42,744 nucleotides of DNA, from NCBI GenBank assembly GCA_049999805.1, contig JBNGIO010005894.1, positions 1 through 42,744 of the forward strand, in the 5' to 3' direction. The position numbers and the translations under genes are program-made. Positions 2,419 through 34,319 of this stretch are shown piece by piece; within the stretch, counting starts at the first letter, position 1; the number at the start of each line of letters is the position of its first letter. Origin of the DNA: Folioceros fuciformis (lineage: Eukaryota). The notes beneath the pieces are model-generated. The model worked only from the letters and a program-made list of their open reading frames with translations, did no database searches and was not told the DNA's origin.

Positions 2419-3723
2419 AGCTGAAGAAACCGATGTGCAGAGCGGAGCTGAGGAGCTGCAGAGCAGGTTTCCGTACCTTGCTTAGGCACATCTAGCTAAG
2501 CTTGTGTGCGTGTGAAGCAAATTTCTTGTCGAGTCCTCCTATCTCCGGGACACATTCTTTGTGATAGATGTTTATTGATAATCGCTATCCAGTGTAACAA
2601 AACTTGTTTGATTGTAAAGTGTTTCACAATTCTCCATCGAAATGGAAATGTGAGAGGCCTGGTACATGCTTTCTGATTCTTGTCCCCTGTGTCTTCCTAC
2701 TTTCTATCTCTGTTCGTCCATGTGACTGTGTATTCCATGATGCAATGTGAGAAGAGGATGTCGAGGGGAGGCAAAGGAAGCTGAATGGTTTGCAGTGTTC
2801 ACATCTCTCAAGGCAACGGTTGTAGATCTTCCAAGCTTCGAAGGCAACTTCTGCACCTCAGTATCTTGTGGTTCTGATTGCAGGACACCAGGAAACGAAT
2901 GCCTCTTTTTTCGCCTTCGAGAATCTTGGAAAGCATGGCATCACAATGTTGCACTGTGTTGTCGGTTACCTGCAATACCTGGAATGACGGCAATGGCGGT
3001 TTGAGGCTATCCCCATGTTGGATGTTTGTGATAGACGTCCGTCCACATGTGTCACAAGAGGTTTCAGTTGCCGCTTTGTTAGTGATTCGTCCAGAATTAC
3101 CTCCAGTGAATATTCCCGCCTTTTACAGTTGTCTTAATGTTTGCTTTCATTAAGGAATCAAGAAGGGACCTGTTCAATGATGCGTGAAGGCAACGGGGAT
3201 GAAACTGTATCTCTCTCAGTGCCAACGTGCGAACGGTGGCCTTCCCCCGCCGAGGACTCCAGACGGCCTCAGAGCTCCCGACAAGGTTCAATGCATTGTG
3301 TGTTTCAGATGCTCTAGTGACGCAACTGGTTCTCCACGAATCCAAGCCCAAGTGACCCGGAATCGAGCCCCGTTAATATGCTCGCCTCGATCGCTGAGTC
3401 CGTCGGAAGTATGTAAAGCTGACATTACGCCGGTGTCGATGCTTAGTCGTTTCGTCAGGTGAAATTGTGGGAGTTGGAGGCGGCTTGCCGATGATGGAGC
3501 AAGCGCAGTGCTTGAAGCAATCTCCTGATTTGTTTCTTCATCAACACCGCTACATGATGTTGGTGTGTCGCAACGGATTGATCTAACCTCCGGATCCGTG
3601 GAGTAATCACCCGTACGCGGCACGCTGTGCCTGATTTGATCAGTTGGAGGTCATTTTCCAACGCATGTGCAGCCGTACCAGGAGGACATCAAGCAGGAGG
3701 TTGCTGCAACCATCAATTGATTC

Positions 3724-4286
3724 ATGGCGGGCCAAACGTACAGGTATCCCTTGCCGCGACATGATTCGTGATCCTACATTTTCTGTTGAGGACGTTCACT
3801 CAAAGGCATGGAATATTACACATAACTGCGAGACTGTGGGGTGTGTAGCATGAGGAGAATCTGATCCGTATGCCAAAACTGTTGGCCTCAGCTGATGACC
3901 GTCTACTGTCTTGTGGCAGCTGCCGAGCGTGTGGCACAGCTCTCAATCTGTTCTCCGACTATCTGTTTCCCGAAGGCATGTTCTTCGAGGCTGGAAACAA
4001 AGGCACTCTTTCCTTCTTCCACATTGACGGCAGCAGCTTTCGCAAGGAGGAGGAGAAGAAGTACAAACCCTTTTGGGAAACAAGGAACTACTGGGGAATA
4101 CAGCGCATCAGGACGAAGCTGCTGTGTGCATCTTGTGATGCACTGGTCGGACATATCTACGAGGACGGCCCTCCTCTGAGAGCTGGCCACGGTGTACACC
4201 ATTTTGGTCCGAGCCAAGTGATTCCCAGGCAGCCGCGCTACCGCATGAAGATAAATGCTTTGCTCCAAAAGCCTCCGCTTGATTAG
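3724..4286 (+). CDS. Small Zn-binding Yippee/MsrB-like fold protein (At2g17705-like), paralogue 1; exons 3724-3743 and 3920-4286
   Basis: Exon 1 MAGQTY-AG|GTATCC and acceptor GGCAG|C give YSCRACG. Two CxxC pairs; FEAGNKGTLSF, ETRNYWGIQR, YEDGPP and FGPSQVIPRQPRYR motifs. Confidence 0.9.
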
Positions 4287-5003
4287 AAGGAGAGCTCAAC
4301 CGCACCAGACCTCAGCGCACCAGGCTATGTGTAAGACGCTGGAGGTAACAAGTATGAGCAACTTTAGCTCGGAGATTCTGCCTATTAAACCGACGTATCC
4401 ACACCTGTGTGTCGCTTTCTTGTAGTGTGCACGTTTGGGTCCTGGTAGGAAGTAGAATGACTCGCAGTTGTTTCAGGTCCTTGAAACCGATCCTTGGACC
4501 CATCAGGCCGTCATATCATACGCTCCATTTGAAAGTGGAGAGTATGGTTCAAATTATGAAGCCACAGAGGTAGAAAAACATCCCACCCTTTCCCTAGTCG
4601 AACACATTCTCACTTCACTGAGAGCTCAGAATTTCAATGTCCCGGTTAGCACCAAGCATCCAGTTCCCAAGGCAGCCTTGGAGATCGGAGGCTGTTTTAT
4701 AAGTCTTGCCGAGGACATAAGAAAGCAAGCCAATCTTTGTTTAGTAAATCACTCTTTAACCGTACACACCATAGACGAAAGGCTGGTTTGGTAATCCTAC
4801 AGAGTACGGGCCTGCACAAGTGCATTCTGTCTGGCCTTGTGCAGGCCCCTCACGAGGTGGGGCCATGGCGGGCGCACTGTTGATGAACCTGGAGCCTGAG
4901 GCCGGCAACTACTCGCCCCGCCTCGCCTCGATTTCAGCTCACGAATCGGGCCAGGATGAGATGCCGCAGAATGCAGGTCACGAACCACTCAGCCCTTGCA
5001 CGC

Positions 5004-5222
5004 TCACATGCGTGGCAGAATCCCTCTGCTGGAACTGTACTTGAAAACGTCGGCCAGAGTGGCCGTTGGAGCCCCAGTCCCAGTCCCAGGTCCAGGCTTG
5101 GTGTCGTCATTCGCATGCCCTTTCGGCTGCTGCTTGGGACCGGCGCTTGCTGCCTTGTGAGCGTCATCGGTTGCAGCCACGCGGGAGTGTCCGAAGCACT
5201 GCAGCTTGCCGAATCCCGCCAT
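5004..5222 (-). CDS. Uncharacterised 72-aa microprotein ending ATLADVFKYSSSRGILPRM
   Basis: Shares C-x4-RVA and a 21-aa C-terminal motif with the ORF at 15356-15616, with synonymous codon differences between them. Confidence 0.65.
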   Translation of the reverse strand: MAGFGKLQCFGHSRVAATDDAHKAASAGPKQQPKGHANDDTKPGPGTGTGAPTATLADVFKYSSSRGILPRM

Positions 5223-6551
5223 CGCTATTCGCCGAGCGCTGAATCGGCCCGCAGCTGGCCGGTAACCCGAGAGTCGCGGGATCACAATCCGGGTCTACAC
5301 GGGTGCTCAAATCGCGAATGCAGGCAGACACTGTCCCTGCCCGCTCGCAACGTCGTGAGAAATTGAACCGCACCGGTATCGATTTCCACAAGCAGCGCTG
5401 GCTGCAGTGGACGAAATCGGAAGGAAACAGACCGCAAGCAGGAGCACTTGCAATTGCAACTTCACTCGCAAGCTGCGGGACGGGATGGCAGTGAGCGGAG
5501 AGCAAAACACAGGGCGCTTGCAAGCTTGGATCGAAATGCAGACAGCAGAGGAGATGCTCTGTCGCTGCGGTTCCGACGCTGTTAAAGGAGGCCGGGAGCT
5601 GGGCGAAATGCGTGCGTGCCACGCCACTGCGCAGATTTCAGACACGTACGGAATTGGACACCAGTGTAAGACTAGTGTGCAGCGGGTAGTCTGGTCAATC
5701 CACAGACGACCATCTACTCTCCTTCTCGCTTCTGGATCATCGCTTGCCTCCCAAGCCAGACTCAGACTCCTCGCTTGCTTCTCGGTTCTTGCTTGTTGCC
5801 CAAGGCAGACCCAGGCCCAGACTGCTGCTCATTGGGGCATGAATAAAGTTGACTAGTTGTTGTACCCACCTCCTCCTGACAACGAACAAAGTTGTTCATC
5901 ATGTTTTGTGGACGATAGCTATGGCATACTTGCGTGAAAACACCACACACCACCGCTTTGATGCCTGAAATTGAAAGCCCACAGCGAACTTCCCCGACCA
6001 TAGAGGTCAGGCTCAGGGCCCCTATCCAGAGATGGGGTTCAGGTTCACGACGGGTTGGGGGTTTCAAGATAGGGTTCAGGAAGGGTTGAGTTGAGCCCCT
6101 GACTCTACTAAAATTCTTCTTCTCCTCCAGTTTGAGAAATCCTTCCTCAAGTCGACCTAAAGAGAAGTCGTCTTAATGGATTTCAATAGATTTCTTCGTC
6201 TTCTAGTCTCCTTCGTCGCCACCCCTGTGTGTATTTTTTCTGCTTCCACGACCCTTCCCTTCAGCCCTGCTGTTTACACTTTGTGGTTGCCGCCAAGTTC
6301 TCCGAAAGCTGGACGCTGGATTCCACCGCTTTCGCTGCCATCACCAGCGCGTGCAGGACTGAGGATGCGGTTCGCTCATCGATCGTGAGTGGGGGCATGT
6401 TGGGACGGGACGAGGACACTGAGCTTCTCCGAGTCCTTCCATCTCGGTGCGGGCTCCGGCTCGGACTCCGGCTCGGCGTCGGCATCTCAGTGCGATTTTC
6501 GTGACCGCAGTCCGCCTAATTTGAAGGATTTCCCAGCACCTTGATCTCCGG

Positions 6552-7087
6552 ATGGCGGGGGTGTTGTACAGGTGTATCCTCGTCTCCCTTGCTTCCTTCT
6601 TCGTCTTCCTCATGCTCCCGCCTCGTGTGCGGGCTTCCACGTCTCCAGCGCTAGTGTGGCCAGTGTGTACTCATGTGTTGGCTTGTTGGTACGTGGCAGC
6701 AGTTGCCGGGCGTGTGGAGAATTCTTGGAGCTGGACTCTGAGTACCTGTTTCCCCAGGAGATGGTGTTCGACGCCGGGAACAAAGGCACTCTGTCCTTCT
6801 CCCACGTAGGCGAGAGCACCTTTCGGAAGGTAGAGGAGAAGAAGTTGAAACCCTACTGGGAAACGAGGAACTACTGGGGATTGCAGCGACTAAGGACGAA
6901 GCTACTGTGCGCATCCTGCGGTGCTCTCCTTGGCTACATTTATGACGATGGGCCTCCTCTGACGCCTTCAACCGGTGTCTACCACTTCGGCCCCAGCCAG
7001 GTGGTTCCCAGGCAGCCTCGCTACCGGTTGAAGATTAAAGCTTTGCTGCAACAGCCTCCACTCGGTCACCAACACCACAAGGTATAG
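6552..7087 (+). CDS. Small Zn-binding Yippee/MsrB-like fold protein (At2g17705-like), paralogue 2; exons 6552-6571 and 6703-7087
   Basis: Same 20-nt first exon and phase-2 intron as paralogue 1 (MAGVLY-AG|GTGTAT ... GCAGCAG|T); same CxxC pairs and motifs. Confidence 0.9.
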
Positions 7088-8630
7088 GACTAGGACTACC
7101 CTTACAAGACATATGACGGTATGGTTCCTGTCAACTGGCTCTGCTCCATCCCGTCCCAGGCACACATGCTTGCGGATGTCTTCTAGGTCAATGTTCAGAT
7201 CTCATCTGTAGAGTGCAGTCCCTGGATCTGGGAGAATGTGTTGCACTCCCCTCCCCTGTATCGTCAATCAACAGATTTGTAGCTCCTGTGACTGTTCCTC
7301 TCAAGCAAGAGGGGGAGACTAGCACTTTCCCTGGCACTCGACTCCTGTGCAGAAGTCCGTACGAACTTTTTTCCTTCACATCACTTGCAGTGGGACAGTG
7401 ATACTTGATAAGTGTCTATGTTCTTCTATGCAATCACAACACATCACAGCTGGAGGAGAACTTCCCAAGGCTACCTCATCGTTGATCCAGAGCTCGCTTC
7501 CCGGATTCTTCATATTGTGCAGAGTCCAAAGCCCATAAAGGCTCCTCTACTCCCGATTGGGTACCCAAATTTTGTACTCCTCCTTGCGATTACCAAGAAC
7601 AAGAAGCAAGCGACTGCATGCTGTAAACATACTCTGGTGGATATGGTTGCAAGCCTGCCATCGCCACGGGATCAGGAAGCGATCGTACGCATCCTTATGG
7701 ATGCAAGGGCTTTTGTAAAACTGTTTAACAGAGTTCTTCTTCTTTTGTTCTTTTGTTTCGAGTATGTACTGTATGCTCCTAATCCCGGTGGCCTGGCCAC
7801 ATACATTTGTACATACGTGTGCACTTGATGGTACAAGGTACTGTTCGCGTATCGCCACGTGGATATACAGTACGGGGTCCATGCAGATCCCACGACTGGT
7901 GGAAGGGCGCCACGTGGCTCGTTCCGCTTGTTTTAGACGGCGGCGAGCGGGCGAGACACGCACCAGATTGGAAGCAGCATCGGGTGCATCGGGCGGACGA
8001 ACTTTCGCCCACCCCGGCGTGGGTCCCAGATGCGCCGGTTGCGCCGGAGAGGGTTACCCCAGCGCGGGTTGGCTGGACCGGGGGTCGGTGTTGGGGTTAA
8101 CCACGGGGCAGTCGCGTCGCGGAGCGAGGGGGTCGGAGCGCGGGGGGGGAGAGAGAGTTCGAGAGAGAGTGCTCGGACGGTTGCGATTGGAATTGCGATG
8201 CAGCAAGCTGTGGAGTTCAAAGACAGAGGGCCACGGCCAGAGCGCCACGCGCTCTGTTGCAGCGTCGAGGCGGCCATAGCTGCGACCTTGCCTTCCTCTT
8301 CAACTTCGTCTTGTTCTTCTTTTTCTTCTTCTTCTGCTGCTCCTGGTGCTGCTCCCGCTTGTGTTGGATTCTGCCCTTGTGGCCGCCTTGGTGGTGGTGG
8401 TTGTGGAGTCTGTATCGGCATCGGCGTCTGCACCGTCTGCTTCCCCGGCTGCTGCTGCCGGGCCTGGAAAGGGCGCCGGTTCGGGGGCTGTGTGCGGTGG
8501 ATGCCCATGCCTGCGGGGAACCGTTCGTGGCCCTGACCTCGGTGGCCGGGCTGGCTGAGGCCGGGAAGCCCTGGGCTGGGCATGCTGGTCCCGCCCGCTG
8601 CGAGGGGTTAGGGCCGTCCGCGCAGCCGAG

Positions 8631-10844
8631 ATGAGGCCCCGGGCTTCGTCCGGGGTGTCGCCTAATTGGCTCGCGGTGCTCTGCATCCTGTGCTTCTGCG
8701 GGGGCATGCTTTTCACCACCAGGTGCTGGATGTGAATGTGGAATGGGGGTGGGTCTGGATCTGGGTTGGGAGGGGTGAGGAACTGCGGGAGGAAGAAAGT
8801 AAGAAAGGAAGGAGGACTCATTGGGGTATGGTGTGTGGTGGTGGTGGTGGGTTGGGCAGAATGACTTTCACCCCCGACGATCAGGATGTGATCAGGACGC
8901 AGGGCCTGCGAGGGACTGGGAGGCTGGAATCGCAGATTGTGGCGGAGGAATGCGATCCCAAGCCTGTGAGTGTTGACTCGGGGCCGGGAGCTAGGTGGAA
9001 TCGGGTTGGATGCTGCAATGTGGGGAATGGGGTGGTTTGGTGTTTCGCTTACGAAGGCAGCTTTTCTTGCAGAAGCCTCTTAACTCGGAGACGGGGTCCA
9101 AGGACATTTTGGAAGAGGTGTCGAGGACTCATCTTGCGATTCGGTAAGATCTGGGGTTGGTGCTGCCCCTGTGTGTCGTGAAGGTGCGTTGGCCTGTTCG
9201 GTGGCTGAGAGAGATGTGCTGGTGCTTGAAGAGGGCTTGACAAGACGATTTCTTCACTGGAGATGGAGCTGGCGGCTGCGCGAGCCACTCAGGCTACCAG
9301 TGCTAAGGGGACGCCTGTGCTTGTGAAGCCTATTCATGAGTTTGCGGATAACCAGCCACGGCTAAAGGCATTCGTCGTCATCGGCATCAATACCGCTTTC
9401 AGCAGTCGGAAGAGGAGGGATTCTGTGCGGGAGACGTGGATGCCTCAAGGTACTAGACCTTGTACTGGTTGGCTGATGCGACTGTGCATGTGTGTGGGGC
9501 AACGCGTTTGATGCGCTGTGGTTTGGGCAGGCGAGAAGCTCAAACAGTTGGAGCAGGAGAAGGGGATTGTGATTCGTTTTGTTATCGGGCACAGGTGAGT
9601 TGCCCTTTGCAACTTGTGCTTCCCTTTCGTGGTAAGTCTGCTGCGATACTGCGGTTGGTCGGGTTGTATGACGCCTGCGTGCCATGTGGAGCGCAGTGCG
9701 ACACCAGGTGGCATTCTCGATCGTGCTATCGAGGCTGAGGACGCGCAACATTCAGACTTTCTAAGACTGGTAGGTCTGTCAGGGGGACTCGAAGAACATG
9801 GCTTTTCGTTATCTTCCCTGTCTGGAACTGAACCTGTGACCCCCTGACGACTTGCAGGACCATGTCGAGGGCTACCATGAACTTTCTGCAAAGACGAAGA
9901 TCTACTTTGCCACGGCTGTGTCAAAGTGGGACGCCGATTTTTATGTCAAGGTGGATGATGATGTCCATGTCAATCTAGGTATGTCCCAGGTTCAGCTTCA
10001 CAGTGTCGATTACAGTTAGCGCGAACGACTGTCTGTGCATTGAATACGATTCTACTTTTCTGATTCAGGTACTCTTGGAACAACATTGGCAAGGCATCGC
10101 TCAAAGCCCCGTGTGTACATCGGTTGTATGAAATCTGGTCCCGTTCTGGCGCAAAAGTTAGTATCCTGGCACCTGATGCCTTTGAAATTTTGCGCGTTGG
10201 TTGGCAAGATGCATGTGTGTGAAAGTTTCTTTTTTCACTATGGTTGCAGAGGAGTGAAGTATCATGAACCGGAATTTTGGAAGTTTGGGGAAGAGGGTAA
10301 CAAGTACTTCAGGCATGCAACGGGTCAGATTTATGCCATCTCCAAAGATTTGGCAACGTACATCAGTATTAATCAGTAAGTGCAACTGTGTTTTCTTAGT
10401 TCGAATGATCACTGATTGCTGTTCATGGAGTCCAGAACAAGCTTCTTACGTTTTTGGCTGGTGATTGCAGGCCAATACTGCACAGATACGCGAATGAGGA
10501 TGTTTCGTTAGGGTCCTGGTTCATTGGCTTAGACGTAGAGCATATTGATGACCGGAGCATGTGCTGCGGTACCCCACCAGGTGCTGAAATGACCTGTTGT
10601 CATAGCACACACTTGTTGGTTGTTCAAGGGCCCCTCATTTTATCGTCACCGTGTTTTTCCTACAGGTTTCTGATGTGCCTGCCGCGTGTGTGCAGATTGT
10701 GAGTGGAAAGCCCAAGCTGGCAATATTTGTGTCGCATCCTTCGACTGGACCTGCAGTGGTATCTGCAAATCAGTTGAGAGGATAAAAGATGTGCATCAGC
10801 GTTGTGGGGAAGGAGATGGTGCCGTATGGAGTACTACCTTCTAG
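8631..10844 (+). CDS. GT31 beta-1,3-galactosyltransferase (B3GALT family), about 11 exons
   Basis: N-terminal TM anchor ([17 protein letters not shown]); [85 protein letters not shown] and [17 protein letters not shown]; stop TAG at 10842-10844. Confidence 0.95.
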
Positions 10845-13800
10845 CTGCACGGTGAGTGCCATTTGTCGGAACTACTAATCACCAATTCTTTTAGAAATAA
10901 GAGCTGGAGCTCCTTGGGAGCCGAGTAATATTTATGGAAGCATGCGACGAGGCCAGCCATACCTTACCGTACATTTGTGTCCGAGAGCTCAATCAACCAC
11001 TAAGTTATCATGTTGGTCGGGCGGAGGCTTGTGGATCTGGTTGTTGTCTAAAAGCGTAGTGGCGGCATCCCGGAGATATCTTGTCCAACAGGTTTATTAT
11101 ACAGCTTAAAGTTATATGGCAGATGGCAAGCAGGTTCACCTATTTCCGATACAGTATGCAGGTGCTCTGATCGCTGGCGTCGCTCTTGACGTCCAGATGT
11201 TGGCGTCTGGCATCCCCGTTTGTGCAGCAGACACAGGCGATCCGTGGCAGGAGTCTGAGGGTTCTTCTAACTGTTGTAGTCGAGCGAAGTACTTGGGACT
11301 GCTAGGAGTTTGAGCTGACACCTGCAACTAAGATGTAATAGCCATCAAGCACTGAAGGCATCGAAGCCACCGCAGGATGTGGAGTTGGATCAGAGGACAA
11401 GTGTTCTGGTGAAAATATCTGAGAGCAGGCTGGCAACGTGGTTAGCCACACTACCAGTTTGAATTTATTGCCCACCGCAGTCACTTTGCCGGCGAATCTC
11501 ACTAGCGGCTCGAAATGGCCTAACAGTAGGCTAGGCATCGCTAATTCAATTTTGCCCAGTTCTGTTGAAGCTGGTCTCGCCACGGGCAGGCGGCGTGTAT
11601 TCTCCTTCCTATTTATCACCAGGTGTAGCGCTGTCCTCTGATCCCAGTGTACTCTTTAGTGTTTGGTTTTCTGAGAGTTGTACTCTGGTGTGCGAAGTGA
11701 GGAAGTTTGAATCTCGACGGTCCAGTTGTTGTCGAGTCGTGAACTTCGCCGGTTCTGCTCCTTGTACAAAGTCGTCGTGTAGGTTGAGGAGGATCTATGA
11801 TTCTCCAGTTAGTGTACAAGTGCTCGTCCAAAAAGATTGCCTGGAAGTACGTGGTGCAGAGATGTGACTAGTCTCTATAACTGACAATTAAATCAAAAGT
11901 TTTCGGCAGTTGCTTGACTGTTGCTCAGTGCATCTTCGGAATTTCCATGCACTTGACACTGTTGTATTCCTCACGCCGGGCTCAGCTGTCTCTGGTGCTG
12001 TAACAGTCAAGTGTCCTCGTCTGACTCCGGTTTGGCGCCCACAGCGTCGTTCACAGCGCAGGTCGTTTCCTCTTTTGTACCTTTCTCGTCCTTTGTATCG
12101 GATCCTTTCTCGCCAATTCCGCATGCCACTGTAAAGGTCTCATGTCTAAATCTGGGTGGGATTCTGCATCAACATTTTACTGTGTAGGATTCTCCGGAAG
12201 CCTTTCCCAGTGTAGTAGAAACCAAGGAACATCCCCGCTGTAACCAGCTTGTACAGGTGAAATATCTGTAGTCCATGCCCGTTGGCGGATCGTGCGCAGA
12301 CAAATCCAGCTTGCTGGCAAGCTTGAGTGTCGCAGGAAAAGCACCGACGCCATGTCTTGTGGCCCCGTAAACGAAACAAGCATACTAAATACAGACCTTG
12401 TATACATACACAAGGTCGTAGACGCTCGTCAAAGTTGCCAACTCCCGAGACCTCCTCGTGGTCTGGAGGCCTTGTTGCTGCGTGCGTGGGCCCGGCAAAG
12501 ATCAGGCGTTCACCTCCCCTGGTCTTGCCCAAGAGAACTTGCCTCCTCCTCTCTGCCGCATACAAGAGTTTAGGGTTGCTGGACTTCAGAAATTTGCCCA
12601 TGGAAATCAAAGTCAGTATAATGCCGTATACAACGATAGGAATCTTAGCAATGCTCGCGGTTTGCAGGGGAAAATCGTGAACTCCTTTCAAAACTGGCTA
12701 CAAACTTCTCAGTAAGAAAAATGATTCACAATTACTCCATGGGGTTCGGCTGATTCATTGCTCCGTGGTGCAAAGAAGTGAGGGGATCCATATGCCCGTC
12801 CCCGCAACTCTACACGAGTTGAGAATGGGAGGCATCTCTGACGAGGTCTTGATAATAAGCTGGTTGCCATTCAGCAAACAAAACTCTCTGCAAACCCACC
12901 GAAGGACGTATGAAAGGACAAGCGCGTGTTCTCGCTTCTCCCTTCCTAAGGGAGAAGCGAGAACAGCTTATATTTGGACTTGCTCTTTCCGAACATAACT
13001 AGTGCACAATTTCTGTCAATCTCAGAAGCCCCATCTGCGTTCCGGTTACTGAACAACGGAAACTACTGACAAGCAAGGAATGTACTTGAACTCCTAGTTT
13101 AGAAGGGGCATGCGATGGTGTTGCAGGTATTGAAGCATTGGAGCTCCACATCAGCCACGATACCTGCCTTACTTGTAGCTTGAAAGGAGAATACCATTTT
13201 GCAGGCTGAACCTCCTAGAACGGTCCGCATAGACTTCATACGATGACACAGTTTCAGACAATGGAGGAATACCTCCAGCTGCATTGTTGGACACGTACAG
13301 AGTGAAAGGCTGCTGCAATTCCTTAGCTTGACTTTTCGTTCCTGACCCCTGGAAACATCACAATGTCATGTCAGGCTTCTCTCAGAATCAAATTAGCAAC
13401 ACCTGGGCTGGGGTTCACCTATAATTACTGGTGCATTGGATGTACAAGCGAAGAGTCCACTCAGAGTACGATACAGAGCGCGACAGACAGAGGACACTGG
13501 ATGACGGTTGAGCAACAGAAGATCTTGTGACATCCAACGGTCCACTTCACCTCTAAAAAGCTGCTCAGGCTGCACATCATGGAGTACTTCAACTCCTGCT
13601 TCTGGCTCCTGGAACGCTCGACGTCGATTGGGTCAGGCGATGGAACCCTTTGACAAGCTAAAGAAGAGCAGGGAAGCAACTCAGCCTGCTCTACTTATTT
13701 CAAGACGAGCGCGCTCACACGCAGAACTAATTCGATGGCCTGCTTGAGCAATGAGCATGTTCAGCGGGAGCGGCATCGACTGGTTCCATTTGCCTCAAAT

Positions 13801-15355
13801 CGTCCCCCAGGCGATACTTCTAGGCACGGGGCCATCCGCCTGTTCTTCTACCAGTTTTGTCGCTTGTGTTGCAAGTTGCGCAGGCAGTAGCGGTGCCGTG
13901 GTTCGTGATGAACAGGACCGGACAGCGCACACACAGGACTCACACCCATTCAACGGCTCGCAGGCTCGTCGCAGACGCAGCAGATGCAGAGGATGGCGGA
14001 GGGAGCTGAAAGGGACTTGACGACAAATGTGGAGCGAGCTGGACACTCTGGCCGATAATTCGTCCTCACCATGCACGGCACTCAAGTCACGAGGCACGAC
14101 GTGTGTGCACCAGCCTCATTTGCACTGTCTCTGTCGAGCTCCATTCCGACGTTTCTCCGTCACTCGAAGGACGGTATGGCAGCTATCGCTGACCTCATTG
14201 CAAGGCTCTAAAGCTCCCATTACACTTTACAGTGAACTACTTCTCGGCTGGAGTAACGGCTTTTGCTGCTACGGGCTGACTTCCGCTGTATTTTAGATCT
14301 TCTGCACTTTTGGAATCCACACGGAGTAGTAGCATGATCGAGAAGCTTGCTGTTGATCCTTTTGCCTGATGCTAGTCCACTCCTCCACCGCAGTGCAACC
14401 TTATCTACAAATGCGAGGTTAAGGAAGGTGGGACTGGTCAATAGCCCGGCTCGGCATCGGCTGATAGGATCACGAGATGCATTTCAAGTCCTAGCTGCAG
14501 ATATCGCTCTTTTACCAGGAAGGTCAAGCGAAAAGTTTGCAGAGCAAACTAAGCCCACGACGACTGGGCTTGCAGGGTCTCTATCTTGCACGATGGTTCC
14601 AAGATGCAAAAAGCGCAGTGCTCATGGCCTGGTAGAAGATGGTGAAACGTCGAAACGTCGGTGACTTAAGACCTGGACTTCGCGCCTGGCAATTGAAGCA
14701 CGCACGTCGCCGGTAGATACCCATAGCTTTCTCTCCAAAGAACTCGTGAGATAACCACAGGTGGCCTCCTATGGAGCAACTGAATGTGTGGTTGGAGCTC
14801 CGGCGGCTCAGGCTGCCGTAGACCACAGCTCTCGTCGGCTTGAGGCGTTTCAAAGCGTTGTAGCCTTACCAACCATGCGGGGTCTTTGATGGTTCCGAGC
14901 GTCTTCTGCTTGGAATCAGCACTGCGTGGTCAGTGTCCTCTGCAGAATGTCCTAACATATGCTCCGGATCAAGCCTCCCTGGTCTGTGACTCCACTACAA
15001 CACCCTTTCACATGTAGTCCAGACTTGAAGTTTGAGGTCTCTCTGGTTCACTTCTGCAAATTAAGCTTGGCTTGTAGTTCTAAGGCTGCAGAACCTCCCG
15101 GCGACACAAGGCTCTCGCGGCCACGCTCTAAACATTGTCAAACCCAAGCTGCGGAGGCATCCACATATGGCCTCCCTCTTTTGTGTAAGGAAAGTCTGTT
15201 TAACCACTGCCTGTACTTCAAAATGTTGCAACCTCGCAAGCATCGTGACTCCAGCTCGCAATCACGCTTCCAAGGTGAGTGCTAGCCTAGCCTCGCATTC
15301 ACTCCCCTTCAGCTCCCTTTCAGTGTGCAGAAGCTCCGCAGTCACAATGTCAGCA

Positions 15356-15616
15356 ATGGGAGCGTGCCTGCGACGCCCCCGCGTGGCTCCCCGCGCTGCA
15401 GCCGAGCAGGAGCAGCTGCAGCAGCCATCCAACCCCGAAGATCCACCTTCATCCAATTCCAAGCTGCAGCAGGCCAAATCGAACGCCGGCAACACCGCCA
15501 AATCGAGCGACACTTGCAAGCAGTGGAACAAGATGAAGAATTCAAGGCCTCCCAGCGCCACTTTCGCGGACGTCATCCACTACAGCTCCCACCGCGGATC
15601 GCTACCACGCCTGTGA
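15356..15616 (+). CDS. Uncharacterised 86-aa microprotein (MGACL...ATFADVIHYSSHRGSLPRL); alternative start at 15347
   Basis: MGxC N-terminus, low-complexity Q/S/P middle, and a C-terminal motif shared with 5004-5222(-). Confidence 0.7.
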   Translation: MGACLRRPRVAPRAAAEQEQLQQPSNPEDPPSSNSKLQQAKSNAGNTAKSSDTCKQWNKMKNSRPPSATFADVIHYSSHRGSLPRL

Positions 15617-16641
15617 ACCTCAGCCAGAGATGAAGCTCGTCTTGAGCTTCGCAGTCTTGTCGTTGATGCAGTAGCTACTCGATGGCTTCTAGCGAATTGA
15701 TAGAAGGAGAAGTGAAGAGGTACATGCTCTCAAGACGGAGAAGTCTGAGCAAGAGAAGCAGAGGAAGAAGGAGAATATTGAGGCGAAAAAGAAGAAATTC
15801 ATCTTGATGAATTTGGTCGGAACTGCTGTAGCTGTAGCAGCTGCAGCAGCTGAAGCTATGGCTGTTGCGATGAATAGAGCCTGAGGCACAAAATTGAAGC
15901 TTGTTCACAACAGATTCGTCAATTTGCAAATGACTGACTCCTTTCCTCCACCATCGCACTGAGACTTGATGCTCAAGATCTAGAATCCACTGTTTGCAGC
16001 GTACCAGAGAGGAAAGCGCGCGGCGACGAAGCAGACCTAGTTTCCTGCATCGCGAACACGGAATTGGCCGACAAGGACAAGGCAGAGGACATGGAAGGTG
16101 GAGCTCGGTGGCCACAATTTTGGAACCCTAGGCCAGCGTTTGTCGTGGCCTCGGGGTTTGCGTAGGAAGCCGGAGCCGTGGGACAGCAAGAAACAAGGGA
16201 ATGACGGGCCTTTCCTAGCGCTGGGCGACAACGGGTGGAAGGGCAGCGATTCGGGAAGTGGGAAGTGACCTCGCGTCTCGCTCGCAGTTAGCACCAACCC
16301 CTTGTTTGGAGGCCAACAAACAAGGGAGTCAGGCGTACCAAACCTACGGGGGTGAGGTGTGCGGGGTCCTTGAGCGAGGAATGCAGCGGAGGCCGGGACA
16401 CTGCACTGGTCAGCGGCCTCGATGCATCCGCGGCGACAGGCTGCTTTGTCGCCAGCCCCGTGGGTCCGCCCAAGGATTAAGGCGCCTGGGAGCAGGCAGG
16501 CAGACCAGCAATTGCAACAGCCTCGACGTAGAGCTGGAGCTCACGTCTCGAACCGGACTACCTACGTGCCGTGCCACATAGCCCCACTTCCGCCTACACT
16601 CGCTGTTCTCGGGCATCACTGAGGTCATTCGGGCAGCAGCC

Positions 16642-18454
16642 ATGGCCGCGGCCCTCGCAAGGATCGCTGGGTGTGCGCTCGAGCTGCAGGATAAGCCACA
16701 GCCGCAGGCGCAGTACTGGGTGCAGAGAGCGAGCTGGGGGAAGAAGGCGATGACGGTGAAATGTGCCGGTGGCGGGAACGTGAACGGCGCGGCTGCGGTG
16801 CGGGTGGAGGAGCAGAGCATCCCAATACCGCTCCCTCTCCCGCTTCCTTTGCCCTTGCCGCTGCCGATGCAGCTCAATCCCAGCCCTGGAGCGGAATTGA
16901 CACCTCTGAAGGAGAAGGAGATGCAGGGTGAGGTGCCCAGGTCGGGGATCAGCGACGTGGATGTGGATGTTCTCAACCATCTCCGGCATGGTCGCCTTGT
17001 GGAGGCCAATGCCGTCTACCGCCAGACGTTCGTGGTGCGCTCGTACGAGGTCGGCGCCGACAAGACGGTCTCCATCGACGCCCTCAACAACCTCTTCCAA
17101 GTGCGCAAGCCAGGACTCCTTTCGGATCCCCTGTCTGATGCTTCCTTGAGAAGTCTCAGACCTGGCTCACGAATTCCACGGTGTTTGGGAACGTTTGCAG
17201 GATGTAGCGCTGAATCATGTCTGGGTGTCGGGGCTGGCCGGGGACGGATTCGGAGCCACCCACGCGATGGTGCGGGGGCAGCTGATTTGGGTCGTGACGC
17301 GCATGCATGTGCAGGTGGACAGATACCCTGCCTGGTAATCATCCTCCCCTGTTGCACATGCATCCAACTCTGCTCACCATCTGCCCGCGAATGGAGTCGA
17401 TTCACATCCTGTGCCTACCTGCGCCATGTGTGCGATCAGGGGAGACGTGATAGAGATCGATTCTTGGGTCGGAGCGTCGGGGAAGAACGGGATGCGCAGA
17501 GACTGGCTCGTCAGGGACTACAAAGCGGGCCAAATTCTTGCCCGGGCCACCAGGTGGGTTTCACGGAATTCAATTCCAATCCCTTTGCATACACTCTAGC
17601 GAACATTGCTGTGATCGCCGGGTTCAGACTGAGTGAACGACTGAGACACAATTCTCCTGCGCAGCACGTGGGTGATGATGAACAAGGTGACTCGAAGGCT
17701 GTCCAAGATGCCGCAGGATGTGCGCGACGAGATTTCTCCATGGTTCATCGACCGGACGGCGATGGAGGAGCAGGCAGCCGCGGGAAGCAAGATCTCCAAG
17801 CTGGACGACGCGTCCGCGGGTTGCATCCGGTCGAACCTCACGGTACGGACGGATTTCTTTTCGGTTGCCGGTAACCAGCCGCATCCTGAGCTGCTGCACG
17901 AATTGCTCATCACTGTTTCTGTTGCGCTTGTGCTGCAATTTCAGCCGAAGCGAAGCGACTTGGACATGAATCAGCACGTCAACAACGTCAAGTACATCGG
18001 CTGGATGATGGAGGTACTGTATCTCGCACAAGCGTCCGTGGAGGGCGGTTGATTTTGTTGTTGGGAAAGGGTGGTTGTCATTACTTACAAACGCGCATAC
18101 GCGCAGAGTCTTCCGGCTCCATTGATGGAGTCCCATGAGCTGGCGACCATCATTCTGGAGTACAGAAAGGAGTGTGGGCAGCGAGACACTGTTCAAGCTC
18201 TGAGCAGCCTGGAAGCTTGGGATGAGGATGACGATGCCGAGGCCTGCACCTTTAGCCCAGTACAGCATGACGAGCTGGGTTCTTGCAACAGGGACTGTAC
18301 ATGCGACGGGCCTCAAGCCTGCGAGGATGCCTGCACTCCCTCGAACCAGACTTACACCCATCTCATCAGGACTGAGGCGGACAGCTCCGAAATTCTTAGA
18401 GGCAGGACTATTTGGAGAAGAAAACAACCCCAATTGCACCCTCCTGCACATTGA
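16642..18454 (+). CDS. FATB: Plastid acyl-ACP thioesterase, FatB-like; exons 16642-17100, 17201-17334, 17440-17553, 17665-17842, 17945-18013, 18107-18454
   Basis: YRQTFVVRSYEVGADKT, GDGFGAT, LIWVVTRM, GKNGMRRDW, ATSTWVMMN, DLDMNQHVNNVKYIGW, LEYRKEC and RGRTIWR; canonical GT-AG junctions. Confidence 0.93.
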
Positions 18455-22821: not shown

Positions 22822-24299
22822 CCGCAAGGTGTTGGTCGCCTCTACAGTCCGCAAGTTTGAATGTGGCGGGAAGGCAGTGCTCAGGCCACACGACTACCGG
22901 ATGACCGGACTCGCCGATCACCATTTTCCTAGGAACTCTATCAGAATTGTGATAGTAGTGTAGCTGCGCTTTTCACTCACACTTCGCCCAAGTTTTCTAA
23001 TATCCTATTTTACCTACAATAATCGGCTTCTTGTATGCAATGAATGATGCTTGCAAGAGTGCTTGATAAGAGACGAGAGCCTTAGCATAGGGTGTCCATA
23101 TCACCCTGTTTGCTGCTAGTTGAGATGCCTCCAGCCAGGCTCCGTGCAAAAGCCAATAAAATCGAGTCAGCCTAACCCCCTCGGCCTACTGGCCATCTAT
23201 CCCCAACAATGACTCTGTACCGGGACGACGAGCACGGGGAGCAATCCTCGCGATTGCTCGTGCTCGGTGGGGTAACCCAGAAGCTGTCGAATCGTTTGGT
23301 GGGAGATCCACGTCCTACTGGCTACCGGAGTGTCACTGCCAGTCGAGCCACGTTTCCCTAAGGGAATCGCGGGCTCGGGTGGGAAGAGGAAAAGAAGGAG
23401 GAGCCTTTGGTTGAATCAAACGCATCCGCCACCCCCTCGCGGACTGGTTTCGTAATCCCGATTCTCGGATCTCGCACCGCTGCGAACTCGTGACCTCCTC
23501 GCTTGTGTGCCTCATTACGTCCAGGGATGGAGAAGGGATGCTGAGAATCGATCCTGGCTGCCGCTGGCACACCCAGCCAGTCCGCACTTAGGTGGCCACG
23601 GTAGGTCGTTTTCGTGGTCTGCCCCAGCGCCTACAGCGACCTGATTGTTGCGTTGATCTCTTCCCACAGACCCCGTGCCTGGATTGCAAGGAGTCTGCAC
23701 CAGAATTCGGGATATTTTCGAACCCCTTGCTGCCTGAACGGTCCGAGTCCCATTGCTCCGTGCTCTAGCAACCTCCACCGGGCCCGCGCTCCTGCCCTGA
23801 TTGGCACCGTGCCCTCTCCAGGCTTTCCAATGAGAGCCAGACTACGCGCCCGGCCCAGGCCTGGCCTGTGTGCCGAAACGCCAGTAACGAATGGCAATCA
23901 CGGATCCAACGGAGAACGAAGACATTTGTTTCTCTTGGTTTCTTTTCAATACTCCTCAAACTTTGGCTAGAATTCCAAAAACTTATCTTTATTCCCCATA
24001 GGATTTCCCCATGGAATACCGATACGCGTTCGTTCCAAATTTTTGGACGTCACAAACCTACCCGCATTGGTAGTAGAGCGCCATCTAGGCGCTCCCAATG
24101 AAGACAAACATGCAGTTGTCATCAGATTTTGTCTGACACGTCCAAGTTAGTCAATCTGTCACTTTACTGTCACAATCTTGTCATCTTTTATTAGGGTTTA
24201 GGTTTGAACATCCATCCTATATGTGCCAAGTTCCCAGCGAACCTCGCAGTGTTCAACCTTGTCAATGTTCCCTCAGCGCTCTCTCTCCATATCCAAGTC

Positions 24300-24480
24300 C
24301 CTTTCGTGCATTCCTATCTATCGCCACACCCATGTTCCCTCAACGCTCTTTCTTGCCTATATGCACATCCCTTCCATGCATTCTTGTCTATCGCCACACC
24401 CATGTTCTCTCAGCGCTCTCGTTCACATATATGCACATCCCTTCCACGTATTCTTGCTTATTGCCACACTCCTGCTTGCA
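24300..24480. repeat. Degenerate ~68-bp tandem repeat
   Basis: ctatcgccacacccatgttc..tc..cgctct...tatatgcacatcccttcca occurs about 2.5 times. Confidence 0.7.
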
Positions 24481-26559: not shown

Positions 26560-27545
26560 CACATGGGTAGACAAATGGCAAAGGGTCTTGATAAAGCTAG
26601 TAGGAGCCTACGACTTTGACAAGGATGCCCAAGCATGTCGCCAAAAGTGGCAGGACACAAACAATGACTACAAGATTGATTGTGTGCGAAATGTATCTGG
26701 AGCTGCAATCCAAGATAAGTGTCAATTTTTTGATATAGTTGATATGTACATGCATGATAGGCCCCATGTGCAATGTAAGGCCCATGTTGATTCTAATGGT
26801 GAGGGTCTTGTGGGTTTTAGATCTAGCAACAAAGATAGTGATAATGTTATGGTGTTAGATCATGATGTTGAAGCATCATGTGTTGCAAGAAAAGGCAAAC
26901 AAGTTCATTCGAGATATGAACAACCAAGGGGCCAAAATTCTAGAGATAGTCAAAGAAATGGAGAAACCACTTTCTTCTCCTAGAGCACCCTGTTCACACA
27001 TCTCTCCTATATGTGACCGCTTGAAAAGATTCTTACTCATTACAACTCCCACGCCAACCATAATCATAATCCCAAATGAAGCCCTTAGCATTGACCACTA
27101 GCTGAAACAAGCACAAATAATAGCCTTTTCGGTTATAATAATCATGGGCATTGCGTTTTGGGTGAAGTATGGGTATGTGAGAACCATCAATGGCATCAAC
27201 TACATACGGAATACCACAAATGTCTTGAAACTCTTATGCATACCTTTGCATTGTTGCCTCGAAAGAAAACTCAATGTAGTCATCATGCAACTCCTTTCAC
27301 ATGGCTTTGCAAAAGTCCAACACAACCCTATGCACAGCGGTAACACCAACTGAAAATACATCAGCAATAACTATCAAACAATCAACACCAGCCAACCTGT
27401 ATAATGCCATGACCATCCTCGTGTCCACTAGTATGACTTGATGGAACTTCGTGTCTTGTTTCTTCATATGGGAAGTAACAGATTTGCACAAATACTCAAA
27501 CGTATGTACACCTCGCCAGTATGCATACCTCGCCTGTATGCACAC
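26560..27545. mobile_element. Degenerate PIF/Harbinger DNA transposon remnant: Myb/SANT-like ORF (+) convergent with a broken DDE transposase (-)
   Basis: Plus strand 26588-26983 encodes DKDAQACRQKWQD..DYK..FFDIVD. Minus strand 27297-27545 encodes TFEYLC..DTKF..MALYRLA..IADVF, and ~27120-27235 encodes GIPYVVDAIDGSHIPI..DYYNRKGY. In-frame stops present; no TIRs identified. Confidence 0.85.
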
Positions 27546-27730
27546 CCCTAAGGACCTCGAAGCGTTCAGCCTATATGCACACCTCTAAGGACCTCGTAGC
27601 ATTTAGCCTATATACACATGCCTAAGAACCTCACACCATTCAGCTTTGTGTGCACACGTCTCTCACCTATATGGACACCCCTAATTGTCCCTTAGGTAGA
27701 TTTTTGGGTATTCGCTACTGCACAAGCTAC

Positions 27731-27940
27731 AGAAGAGGACGTCCCTTTTGCGCATTCCTCACTATGCAATTAGTTGGAGGTGAAGAGGACGTCCCTTCTG
27801 CGCATTCCTCACTATGCAATTAGTTGGAGGTGAAGAGGACGTCTCTTCTGCGCATTCCTCACTATGCAATTAGTTGGAGGTGAAGAGGATGTCCCTTCTG
27901 CGCATTCCTCACTATGGAATTAGTTGGAGGTGAAGAGGAC
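27731..27940. repeat. 50-bp minisatellite, 4.2 near-identical copies
   Basis: tgaagaggacgtcccttctgcgcattcctcactatgcaattagttggagg units at 27731, 27781, 27831 and 27881. Confidence 0.95.
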
Positions 27941-29366: not shown

Positions 29367-30988
29367 ATGTTTCAGGACGTTGAGTTTAAAGGTAAGTGCA
29401 CTTGGTTCGTTCCGATTCTGTTCTCGTTTCAATGATGCTCGTTGTTCTGCATGCAGAGCTCCTGCATGATGCACGAATTTTCTTGAACTTCTGGTTTCTG
29501 GTTTTTTTAGAAAGGTTACGGTTATGGTGTTTATGCTTGCAAGCAGGGGGTGGCGAATCTGGTTCGAAGCATGGCAATGATTTCCTGCCGCTTAAGGATG
29601 CGAGGGAGGTCGTGGCGCGTTTGCGCAAGCTGTACCGGTCGTGCTGGGAGCTGTATGAGAGGAAACGAGCCAGTTATTGGATTCTCTTGCTTCTGAGTAC
29701 TCTTGGGATGATGGTTGCCTTTCCCGCTTCCTCGATTCTTACTCGACTGTACTTCGTCGATGGAGGCAACAAGAAATGGCTTTTGTCATGGGTTGCTGCT
29801 GTAGGGTTTCCCATTCCAGCAGCGGTGCTGCTGGTTATGTGCGTCGTTCAAAAGACTTGGCCTTCCCGTCTCTCCTGGGAGTTGTGGGTGGCCTATGCAG
29901 TGCTTGGCTTCCTCAGTGCTGGGGATAATCTTGCCTTCTCCTGGGCTTATGCTTATCTCCCAGCGTCAACTTCAGCATTGCTTACCACGAGCTCTCTTAC
30001 TTTCACTGGCATCTTTGCCTATCTTCTTGTCGGCTCGAGGATCACTCCGACGGAAACGAATGCCATCGTAGTCATGACAGCAGGAGCAGTGGTTTTGGCG
30101 CTCGATTCCAGCAGTGACAGGCCACCTGGTGTGAGTCAGAAGCAATATGCAGTAAGTCCTCCCCTGTGCAAAGGTGTTGACTGGTTGATGAAGTCTGATG
30201 AGAAGTCCTTCTCAATAATTGACTTCATTCGCAGGTCGGATTTGTGCTGGATATAGTTGGCTCGGCTCTGCATGGTGTCATTTTTGCTCTCTCAGAGCTG
30301 CTCTTCATCAAGTTCCTGGGAAGAAAGTCCTTCCGAGTGGTTTTAGAGGCACAGACGATGACCGGATTCTTTGCAACTCTCTTCACCACAATTGGAGTGG
30401 TTATTAACGGGGACTTCGCAGCAGCTAAATGGTACTTGTCGCTGCCTAGAACCCGATTCCGAACTGATGACATCCCCATCTCAATTTGATCTTTTTTGGA
30501 TGCTAGCCCTAACGGTCCTTCTGCTCTGCAGTTCACGAACCCTCACCAGCCCTGACGTATAAATGTATCGTCTCTTGTCCTCCTGTGACAGGGAATCGGC
30601 GCATTTCAAACATGGCAGAGGAGAGTATTTTCAGGTCTTGTTCTGGGCGGCTATTACATTCCAGTTAGGAATTCTGGGATCAGTCGGCATTTTATACCTG
30701 TGCTCTACCCTTTACGCGGGTGTCCTGAATGCTGCCCGGGTGCCCGTCACTGCGGTTGCTGCTGTCATTATATTCAACGATCCCATGGGGGGTTCGAAAA
30801 TTCTTGCCCTCATTCTCACTGTCTGGAGCGTGGGCTGCTATACGTACGGGAGTGTCAAGGAGATAGAGCAGAAGGCTAAGCTCACTCCAGATCCCCCTGC
30901 TCAGACAGGCAGCGTGGAAAACGCAACAACGGCCGATGCTTCCGGGCACCTTCGCCCTGCTTCTCTGGACCAACCATTTGAACGCTGA
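29367..30988 (+). CDS. Purine permease (PUP/PUNUT family, PUP5-like); exons 29367-29391, 29547-30151, 30235-30431, 30592-30988
   Basis: AFPASSILTRLYFVDGGNKKWLLSWVAAVGFP, LGFLSAGDNLAFSWAYAYLPAST and LYAGVLNAARVPVT; multiple TM helices; in-frame GT-AG junctions. Confidence 0.92.
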
Positions 30989-31251: not shown

Positions 31252-31493
31252 GAGGGTCCAGACACTGCCAAGCTCAGGACACTCGTCACCCACATCTCCG
31301 TGCCTCATCCGATACGTACCGGAGGGTTCCGGACAGCAGTACAGGCTGTAAGGCTCTCCGTCTTTCCATCCCGCACGGCAAGCAGCTATTGCCCTCGTCG
31401 ATCCGATCTCGAGAAGAATCAGCTGCTGCTCCCTTCATCTCGCATCGCACCGCTACTGATTCGCCTAGGCTTGAAACTCAGAGCTGTAGAGCT

Positions 31494-32663
31494 ATGGCGG
31501 CAGCACCGAAACCTGCGCTTCTGTTGTGCTTCTTGTTGACGCTATGGATGCAGGCTGTGGCGGCGAAGCAGCCGCTGTACTTGAGGATGGCGGACACAGC
31601 GCTGCAGATCTGGAACTCGACGGGGCCGGGGAAGGAAGTATGGAACTACGAGCGGGGTGTGCTCCTCTATGGCATTCAGCAAGTGTGGACGAGGACGAAT
31701 GATCCCAAGTACCTGGCATTCATCAAGAACCGCACCGATGCTTTCGTGGCCGATGATGGCACCATCCCGACATACAAATTAGGAGACTACACTCTGGACA
31801 ACATCAGATCGGGCACCATCCTCCTCTTCCTTTGGCTCCGCACTGGGGAGGAGAAGTACCGCACCGCCGCAGCACTCCTCCGAGAGCAGCTCCGTACACA
31901 CCCGCGCACCAACGAAGGCGGATTCTGGCACAAGCTGGTGTACCCGTACCAAATGTGGCTTGACGGCCTGTTCATGGCGGAGCCCTTCTATGCTCAGTAC
32001 GCGGTGATCTTCGACGAACCGGCTGACTTCGACGACATCGCGTTGCAGTTCACGCTGATGGAGAGGCACGCGCGCGATCCCACCACTGGCCTCCTCTACC
32101 ACGGCTACGACGAGTCCCGGAAGCAGGCGTGGGCCGACCCCGTCACCGGCCACTCACCGAGCTTCTGGGGCCGCGCCGTTGGCTGGTACTTCATGGCGCT
32201 GGTAGACACCCTCGATTTCTTCCCATCATCTCACCCGCAGCGCGCCGAGCTGATCGCCATCGTGCAGCGCTTGGCGGAGGCCGTGGCGAAGGTCCAAGAC
32301 AAGTCAGGGGTGTGGTGGGAGGTGCTGGATCAGGGAACCCGCACTGGCAACTACCTCGAGTCCTCCGCCTCCTCCATGTTTGTCTACAGCTTAGCCAAGG
32401 CTGTCCGCATGGGCTACCTACCTCGCACCTACGCCCATGTCTACATCAAGGGTTTCCGCGGCATCAGGAACCAATTCGTCGAGTTCCGCTCCGATGGCGG
32501 CATCAACCTCAACAGCACCGTCTCCGTCGGAGGCCTCGGCGGCAACCCCTACCGGAACGGCACCTTCGAGTACTACATCAGCGAGGCGGTGGTGACCAAT
32601 GACGCCAAGGGCGTCGGCCCCTTCCTCCTCGCGTCCATGCAGGTCCTCGCACACTCCCACTAA
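31494..32663 (+). CDS. Secreted GH105 unsaturated rhamnogalacturonyl/glucuronyl hydrolase (YteR-like, Glyco_hydro_88 clan), intronless
   Basis: Signal peptide MAAAPKPALLLCFLLTLWMQAVAA; WNYERG, LDNI, GGFWHK..YP.QMWLDGLFMAEPF, GLLYHGYDES, FWGRAVGW, YLESSASSMF and NDAKGVGPF. Confidence 0.93.
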   Translation: MAAAPKPALLLCFLLTLWMQAVAAKQPLYLRMADTALQIWNSTGPGKEVWNYERGVLLYGIQQVWTRTNDPKYLAFIKNRTDAFVADDGTIPTYKLGDYTLDNIRSGTILLFLWLRTGEEKYRTAAALLREQLRTHPRTNEGGFWHKLVYPYQMWLDGLFMAEPFYAQYAVIFDEPADFDDIALQFTLMERHARDPTTGLLYHGYDESRKQAWADPVTGHSPSFWGRAVGWYFMALVDTLDFFPSSHPQRAELIAIVQRLAEAVAKVQDKSGVWWEVLDQGTRTGNYLESSASSMFVYSLAKAVRMGYLPRTYAHVYIKGFRGIRNQFVEFRSDGGINLNSTVSVGGLGGNPYRNGTFEYYISEAVVTNDAKGVGPFLLASMQVLAHSH

Positions 32664-33139: not shown

Positions 33140-34319
33140 ATGGAGGTTCTTAGTAGAGCAGCAGGCGTGGAGGCGCGACTGCTTCAGCAGCAGCAGCCGG
33201 CGACTTGTGCTGCCGGCGGTAGTGGTGCGCTGGGGTTTGCCAAAAGCGGGGTGCTGGCGTGCAAGCCTGTTGTGGTGCAGGGGGGGAGCATCAGCTGCCG
33301 ATGNNNNNNNNNNNNNNNNNNNNNNNNNNNNNNNNNNNNNNNNNNNNNNNNNNNNNNNNNNNNNNNNNNNNNNNNNNNNNNNNNNNNNNNNNNNNNNNNN
33401 NNNTGAGAAATCGCTGTGTTGCGGATCGGGGGCTGAGCTGGTGGAATGGCTGGTGTGTGGATCAGGTTTCGCGTCGTTTCCGACTGTGTTAGACATCAAC
33501 CGGATCCGAGACATTCTTCCTCACAGGTGCCTGTTTGAGCTTGCCTGGTGCAGCCGAGTAGGGGAAAGTGGCGTGTGTGACTTCCCGTTTTGCATGCGGG
33601 TGTGGCATGCTGGAGGAGGTGTCCCGGCCCGAGGCTTGGGGGCTGGGTTTCAAGGTGGTTGCTTGCAATTGGCTGCAGATTTCCCTTCTTGCTGGTGGAC
33701 CGGGTGATTGAGCATACTCCTGGTGNNNNNNNNNNNNNNNNNNNNNNNNNNNNNNNNNNNNNNNNNNNNNNNNNNNNNNNNNNNNNNNNNNNNNNNNNNN
33801 NNNNNNNNNNNNNNNNNNNNNNNNNCTCCTGGTGTGTCCGCTGTGGCCATCAAGAATGTGACCATCAACGACAACTTCTTTCCAGGGCACTTCCCGGAAC
33901 GCCCTATCATGCCTGGTGTTCTTATGGTCGAGGTGAGCTGGCCCCACGGGTTTCATTCGGGTTTTGGCACTTTCTTCCTTCCCATCTCCTATCTCTACGT
34001 TGTGTTGAACGTCTACGTGTTCCCTCTTTGCTTCTTTTGTTCCATGCAGGCCCTGGCGCAAGTGGGAGGAATTGTGATGCTACCGCCAGACGAAAGTGGG
34101 AGCGGCGGAGGCACCAAGGAGATTTTCTATTTCGCAGGAGTTGACAAAGTGCGATGGCGGAAGCCGGTTGTTCCCGGGGACACACTGGTGATGCGCATGA
34201 ATCTGATAAAGTATCAGAAGCGCTTTGGCATAGCCAAGCTGGAAGGCAAAGCGTATGTTGGCGGGGAAATAGTCTGCGAAGGAGAATTTTTGTTGGCCCT
34301 GGCGACCGAAAAGGAGTAA
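33140..34319 (+). CDS. fabZ: Plastid 3-hydroxyacyl-ACP dehydratase; spans two N gaps
   Basis: [57 protein letters not shown] and [17 protein letters not shown]. Confidence 0.93.

Follow-up and report, generated by a model that had tools for sequence, protein, structure and literature searches.

Two diverged small open reading frames in a land-plant nuclear window share a C-terminal tail that may serve as a peroxisome-targeting domain

The small open reading frame (ORF) at 15356-15616 (+) raises two questions: whether it is a gene, and what its last residues are for. It lies in a window of 42,744 nt, by which we mean the whole stretch of DNA that was analysed, and its C-terminus recurs in a second small ORF at 5004-5222 (-). 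A first-pass annotation had placed both ORFs at these coordinates, where they are indeed found, and had read them as a family of microproteins with an acylation-like N-terminus and a C-terminus resembling a peroxisome-targeting signal (PTS1). We refer to the two ORFs as copy A and copy B. In the following we examine whether they are genes, what has been kept between them, and what could read the part that has been kept.

Two small ORFs, their transcripts and their neighbours

Copy A (P0001, 15356-15616, +) translates to 86 aa plus stop. The GC3 of its frame is 0.73, the highest of the three phases (0.58 and 0.55 in the others). A second in-frame ATG lies immediately upstream (15347-15355, +) and would give an 89-aa product starting MSAMGAC. 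The ATG at 15347 has A at -3 and T at +4; the ATG at 15356 has G at both positions. The frame remains open back to 15065, and an ATG at 15167 would yield 149 aa.

Copy B (P0002, 5004-5222, -) translates to 72 aa plus stop and begins with MAGFGKLQC. Its ATG is in a good start context (G at -3, G at +4), and its frame is closed upstream at 5294, 72 nt before the ATG. Directly upstream of the start are 490 nt that contain no ATG (5223-5712, -), a putative 5' leader. This is the longest of the 1506 ATG-to-ATG gaps on both strands of the window (median 36 nt), which provides an independent argument for the gene model of copy B. The gene model of copy A is weaker. The two copies are about 10 kb apart and divergently oriented.

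Sequence data from run X1 cover both loci. The run is listed as 'RNA?', and none of the sequencing runs listed for the locus is recorded as RNA. We nevertheless take X1 as RNA because at least 15 GT..AG introns of neighbouring genes are spliced out in its contigs, and as the transcriptome of the same organism; the contigs show no differing letter from the window. An unspliced contig at 3917-5864 (strand not given, depth 37.5) contains copy B together with the convergent At4g08330-type gene on the + strand, whose last exon it includes. Another unspliced contig at 14680-15498 (strand not given, depth 5.0) contains copy A from its start through its nucleotide 143. This copy is thinly covered (contig depth 5, bin mean 3.25), with 76% of the sampled words of 15150-15950 present in X1. 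In the same run, the bins 1500-2100 and 2702-3302 have a depth of 0, indicating that the cover is not uniform carry-over of DNA. X1 contigs carry neither strand nor transcript ends, and their depth is unsuited to ranking genes.

Both contigs are colinear with the genome over their whole lengths (3917-5864 and 14680-15498), and no intron is removed over either ORF. A 5'-UTR intron at ~15276-15330, suggested by GT..AG-like signals, was dropped because the X1 contig is colinear there. If the contig at 14680-15498 is one + strand mRNA, nine ATGs precede the one at 15347. The transcripts presumably originate from the ORF strands, and both ORFs are presumably translated.

The window is land-plant nuclear DNA, since it encodes an intronless 961-aa PPR protein with an E motif and a DYW deaminase domain (37973-40858, -). 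Its G+C content is about 50%, and the GT..AG introns of neighbouring genes, read from the joints in X1 contigs, are ~80-140 nt long; introns this short, together with such a G+C content, would fit a hornwort or a lycophyte. Copy B sits between two tandem At4g08330 'beta-tent' paralogues (PF24046), on the strand opposite to theirs. The paralogues lie at 3849-4286 (+; E=2e-35) and 6572-7087 (+; E=1.9e-34) and are 71% identical over 126 aa by tblastx. Between copies B and A is a multi-exon gene at 8360-11958 (+), with a contig depth of 198 and at least 10 introns of ~80-137 nt. Downstream of copy A, a spliced gene runs from 16642 to about 19500 (+); introns interrupt it at 17100-17201, 17333-17439, 17550-17662 and 17841-17944. 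On inspection by eye, the first exons of this gene resemble an acyl-ACP thioesterase; Pfam gives no match for its unspliced 410-aa frame or for its exon 1.

Farther along are a UvrD-like helicase exon (PF13361, PF00580; 20159-21382, -), a purine permease-like transporter exon (PUNUT, E=2.5e-36; 29396-30256, +) and an intronless ORF at 31389-32663 (+; GC3 0.82) whose match to Glycosyl Hydrolase Family 88 is full-length (E=3.1e-107). This family is mainly bacterial and fungal, and the ORF could therefore stem from horizontal transfer or from contamination of the assembly; two 100-N gaps (33304-33403 and 33726-33825) lie just downstream of it. Short tandem repeat arrays with periods of 37-106 nt occur at 27732-27940, 27532-27644, 24265-24469, 78-275 and 1596-1732, the cleanest being a 50-nt unit repeated 4.2 times at 96% identity. 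A search of Rfam returned 0 matches in the window.

A 21-residue tail held while the rest diverged

The last 21 residues of copy A (15551-15613, +) are PSATFADVIHYSSHRGSLPRL and end in PRL>; those of copy B (5007-5069, -) are PTATLADVFKYSSSRGILPRM and end in PRM>. In agreement with the first-pass annotation, 14 of the 21 residues are identical, and BLASTP of the pair gives E=1e-8. When copy A is searched against the window with tblastn, copy B is found at E=3.5e-5 and the next match only at E=0.22, indicating that the window holds two copies and no third.

To set the tail match against a background, the last 21 residues were compared among all pairs of 625 frame ends, taken from the stop-to-stop frames of at least 40 aa in the window. 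The A/B pair, with 14 identities, is the best non-repeat match. One other pair scores 13, which we tentatively attribute to the 37-nt tandem repeat at 27532-27644, and the following pair scores 10. In 40 simulated first-order Markov windows the maxima are 8-10 identities. The match between the two tails is beyond chance. A degenerate DNA pattern for A-D-V-x2-Y-S-S-x-R-G-x-L-P-R-[LM] finds only these two sites in the window and none in 100 shuffles.

Within the tail, A-T-x-A-D-V and Y-S-S-x-R-G are invariant, and conservation is strongest upstream of the terminal tripeptide. In both copies the stop codon follows the motif directly, and the only change at the last residue is from L to M. This suggests that the tail is a short linear motif read at a free C-terminus.

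The nucleotide differences point to selection on the protein, as the first-pass annotation had claimed from six synonymous codon pairs. All six (GCG/GCC, GTC/GTT, AGC/AGT, CGC/AGA, GGA/GGG and CTA/CTG) are present, and CCC/CCA is a further one. The tails differ at 21 of the 63 aligned coding bases, and the differences at codon positions 1, 2 and 3 are 7, 3 and 11 (counted over 22 codons, stop included). By the Nei-Gojobori method dS is ~1.0, dN is 0.32 and dN/dS is ~0.32. When 21 differences are placed at random, at least 14 residues are kept in 25 of 20000 trials starting from copy A and in 13 of 20000 starting from copy B, with a mean of 8.6-8.7 identical residues. The skew among codon positions, the dN/dS ratio and this random-placement rate of about 0.1% all support the claim. 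Furthermore, among the six frames it is the sense frame in which the copies agree best (15 of 26 identical, versus 6-12 of 25-26 in the others).

Outside the tail little is left. In the motif 45 of 66 nucleotides are identical, as against 25 of 100 just past the stop, and global DNA alignment of the two loci yields no conserved block besides the motif. On this evidence the tail has been kept by purifying selection on the peptide, and the rest of the proteins has diverged beyond recognition. DNA similarity confined to the motif, a dS near 1 and constraint at the protein level together indicate that the duplication is old. Comparison of the window with itself by tblastx shows no other duplicated gene beside both copies, as would mark a larger inverted segmental duplication. 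We consider it highly probable that A and B are real coding paralogues.

The protein bodies match their earlier description as unrelated low-complexity sequence, the middle of copy A being rich in Q, S, N, P and K and that of copy B in G, P, T, A and K. The proteins are probably disordered, as had been proposed: AlphaFold2, run on the two-sequence alignment, gives a mean pLDDT of 56.6 and a pTM of 0.18, and predicts no more than two short helices of low confidence, at residues 52-61 and at 70-78, the latter on the F-A-D-V-I-H-Y-S-S part of the motif. By direct reading, neither protein has a hydrophobic run in its first 30 residues. Hence the earlier statement that there is no signal peptide holds, and the N-terminal signal peptide with a hydrophobic core that marks secreted peptide hormones is missing.

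The claims about the N-terminus fare less well. The element C-x4-RVA, said to be shared, is present in both proteins, but the resemblance is within chance: 767 of 5000 composition-preserving shuffles reach 4 identities in 8. The acylation-like N-terminus does not stand as a family trait. MGxC occurs in copy A only, and copy B has Ala-2 (M-A-G-F). N-myristoylation absolutely requires Gly-2 directly after the initiator Met (PMC3668125), and with Ala-2 in copy B it cannot be a trait of the family; copy A itself has Gly-2 only if 15356, the second of two in-frame ATGs, is used. Arg-6 of copy A was dropped as an objection to myristoylation, since plant NMT is reported to accept Arg at position 6 (PMC3668125). 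The Cys at position 4 of copy A or at position 9 of copy B could be a candidate for S-acylation.

Searches beyond the window give no further member. Neither of the two proteins scores above a Pfam gathering cutoff, the best being VAD1-2 with 15.5 bits against 26. P0001 has no candidate with common words in a word-based protein search, which depends on shared exact 5-mers. The two-protein alignment yields none at E<=10 among 6 candidates of near length, and none at E<=10 among 872 longer ones. An HMM of both tails has 0 matches at E<=0.001 among 1.84 billion representative proteins; a 21-residue motif gives at most ~30-40 bits, too few for that threshold in a collection of this size, and the blank search is a weak argument for true absence. 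Four versions of the ORFs, looked up by exact match, are not found, and neither is a PPR control from the same window, from which we conclude that the proteins of the source genome are probably absent from the protein collection. In the metagenome scan, the protein patterns give 319 pattern matches, of which 0 are confirmed, and the degenerate DNA pattern gives 0 matches. The ESM Atlas has no usable match for either protein, and a profile search of the PDB returns three rows, all at E=2.2, as expected by chance. With no homologue found in these searches, the conservation rests on one paralogue pair. Of the small-protein family that had been proposed, a gene pair under selection is thus retained, but no member is found beyond these two genes in one window.

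What may read the tail

The first-pass annotation had named PRL> and PRM> as plant PTS1 tripeptides, and the literature bears this out (PMC3427985, PMC9542071, PMC7214503). PMC3427985 lists PRL> among the validated plant PTS1 tripeptides (Table A1), and PMC9542071 has both in its Table 1. A decapeptide ending in PRM> is reported to carry EYFP into peroxisomes, and loss of RM> to abolish the import (PMC7214503). Both tails therefore end in a validated tripeptide, and the change from L to M between the copies keeps PTS1 competence.

The residues upstream give a mixed picture. According to PMC9542071, targeting is inhibited by acidic and enhanced by nonpolar residues upstream of a PTS1, positions -6 to -4 have the greatest influence, and the enhancer pattern there is 'basic-nonpolar-basic'. 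Neither copy has D or E in its last 14 residues. Both have R at -7, with H/H farther upstream in copy A and K in copy B, and both have the nonpolar L at -4, preceded in copy B by I at -5. Positions -6 to -4 themselves are G-S-L in copy A and G-I-L in copy B, not the pattern described in PMC9542071.

How much weight a listed tripeptide can bear depends on how often one occurs by chance. Any of 41 listed PTS1 tripeptides is found at 10 of the 625 frame ends in the window, both copies included, which leaves 8 of the 623 others, or a chance rate of ~1.3%. We estimate that PTS1 cargo makes up ~1% of plant proteins. Combined with the chance rate, this prior puts the odds of a PTS1 near even. We lower them to 0.35-0.4 because the conservation exceeds what PEX5 needs and because a disordered cargo without a domain is unusual. 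At these odds, PEX5-dependent targeting to peroxisomes would be the most likely single mechanism, as judged from the sequences.

Plant PTS1 proteins, e.g. the Arabidopsis trehalose-6-phosphate phosphatase I with PRM> (PMC7214503) and the PRL> proteins of PMC3427985 and PMC9542071, carry the same free C-terminal tripeptide, of a class ([SAPC][RKNMSLH][LMIVY]>) that includes both of our tails. Known PTS1 cargo, however, consists mostly of folded enzymes, whereas copies A and B are probably disordered products of ~70-90 aa with no domain; a disordered protein lacking an enzyme domain would be unusual cargo for the matrix. The copies also differ in that their conservation reaches 21 residues, beyond what a PTS1 domain needs.

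The explanation that we prefer, with a probability of about 0.4 for the whole of it, is that of old paralogous small genes whose tail acts as a PTS1 domain. Two such genes in the nuclear genome of a land plant, one of 72 aa and one of 86 or 89 aa, would encode largely disordered proteins in which purifying selection holds only the last 21 residues. PR[LM]> and the acid-free, basic and nonpolar stretch of 14 residues upstream would form the PTS1 domain; the TPR domain of PEX5 would bind the tail and carry the small protein into the peroxisome matrix. On this view the segment A-T-[FL]-A-D-V-x2-Y-S-S, weakly predicted as a helix, would carry the function or bind a partner. That PEX5 binds the tail and that the proteins have a role in peroxisomes is our inference.

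The extent of the conserved segment could also reflect a different reader. The genes would then be real and the tail a short linear motif or small helix that a partner different from PEX5 recognises, with PR[LM]> resembling a PTS1 by coincidence. Such a partner could be a kinase, a phosphatase or a scaffold that uses the tail as a docking site, or the tail could be a degron. The invariant A-T-x-A-D-V and Y-S-S-x-R-G, more than PEX5 recognition needs, are in line with this possibility, as are the low-confidence helix that AlphaFold2 places on residues 70-78 and the chance occurrence of listed tripeptides at other frame ends. Yet the tail matches no known motif or family (VAD1-2 is sub-threshold and the PDB profile rows are at the chance level), and a motif that ends precisely at the C-terminus of both copies and varies there only from L to M speaks for the reading of a free end. 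A partner of this kind is somewhat unlikely.

That the ORFs are not independent small genes at all, being either last coding exons of larger genes or an untranslated, pseudogenised remnant, is improbable. The 149-aa extension open to copy A and its thin X1 cover would be consistent with an exon or a remnant, and the exact sequences are absent from the protein collection, though the PPR control is absent too. Against this, X1 contigs are colinear over both ORFs and their upstream regions with no intron removed, the frame of copy B closes shortly before its ATG, and a dN/dS of 0.32 at a dS near 1 argues against a dead copy.

A third possibility, quite improbable, is that the proteins are precursors that release the C-terminal 21-mer as a signalling peptide, on the plan of PROPEP/Pep. 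The general layout agrees: PROPEP/Pep precursors are likewise small and disordered with no signal peptide and a block of ~20 residues at the extreme C-terminus, and copies A and B combine ~70-90 aa, a variable disordered body and a conserved block of that size. However, there is no sequence similarity to these precursors, and Pfam and the homologue searches find no match to any known peptide family. Nor is there a conserved basic cleavage site, the motif being preceded by R-P in copy A and by G-T-G-A-P in copy B. To our knowledge, Pep and its receptors have been described only in flowering plants, a restriction that further weighs against this plan.

Finally, the ORFs might be conserved-peptide uORFs, whose C-terminal nascent peptide stalls ribosomes and so controls a main ORF downstream. 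Such uORFs are likewise short and typically keep only the C-terminal part; moreover, the acyl-ACP-thioesterase-like gene lies ~1 kb downstream of copy A on the same strand, with low-level X1 cover continuing between them (bins 15323-16524). This reading is very improbable nonetheless: copy B has no ORF downstream on its own strand, the genes that come next being on the + strand; the contig of the thioesterase-like gene (depth 47.3) stops, by arithmetic from the contig tables, between ~16376 and 16469, at least 760 nt past the stop of copy A if there is no unlisted intron, and so does not extend to copy A; and no homologous main ORFs accompany the two copies, so that a place in the 5' leader of a same-family main ORF is not common to both members.

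Implications for small plant proteins

Returning to PEX5-dependent import as the preferred reading, what would proteins of this kind do in peroxisomes? They may act there as small regulators or adaptors, e.g. by competing for PEX5; alternatively, the microprotein may ferry a partner bound to the conserved helix. The broader proposal, that of a lineage-restricted family of disordered microproteins that enter plant peroxisomes by way of a conserved 21-residue PTS1 domain and act as regulators or adaptors, is speculative and in our judgement unlikely. We know of no sORF-encoded family of peroxisomal microproteins described in plants, and none from plants is among the literature matches listed for such proteins.

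Plant annotations routinely omit small ORFs, and most candidates come with no evidence of constraint. Copies A and B resemble lineage-specific plant sORF microproteins as reported in PMC9638090 and PMC12744755, which are likewise unannotated, shorter than 100 aa, represented by low-abundance transcripts and devoid of detectable homologues. Unlike most plant sORFs, the pair offers direct evidence of purifying selection on a defined motif: two diverged copies in one window provide a clean internal test of protein-level selection, limited to the C-terminal motif. Should import be confirmed, very small proteins without domains would join the peroxisomal proteome of plants as a class of cargo; should it not be, the 21-mer can still serve as a defined bait with which to identify its reader.
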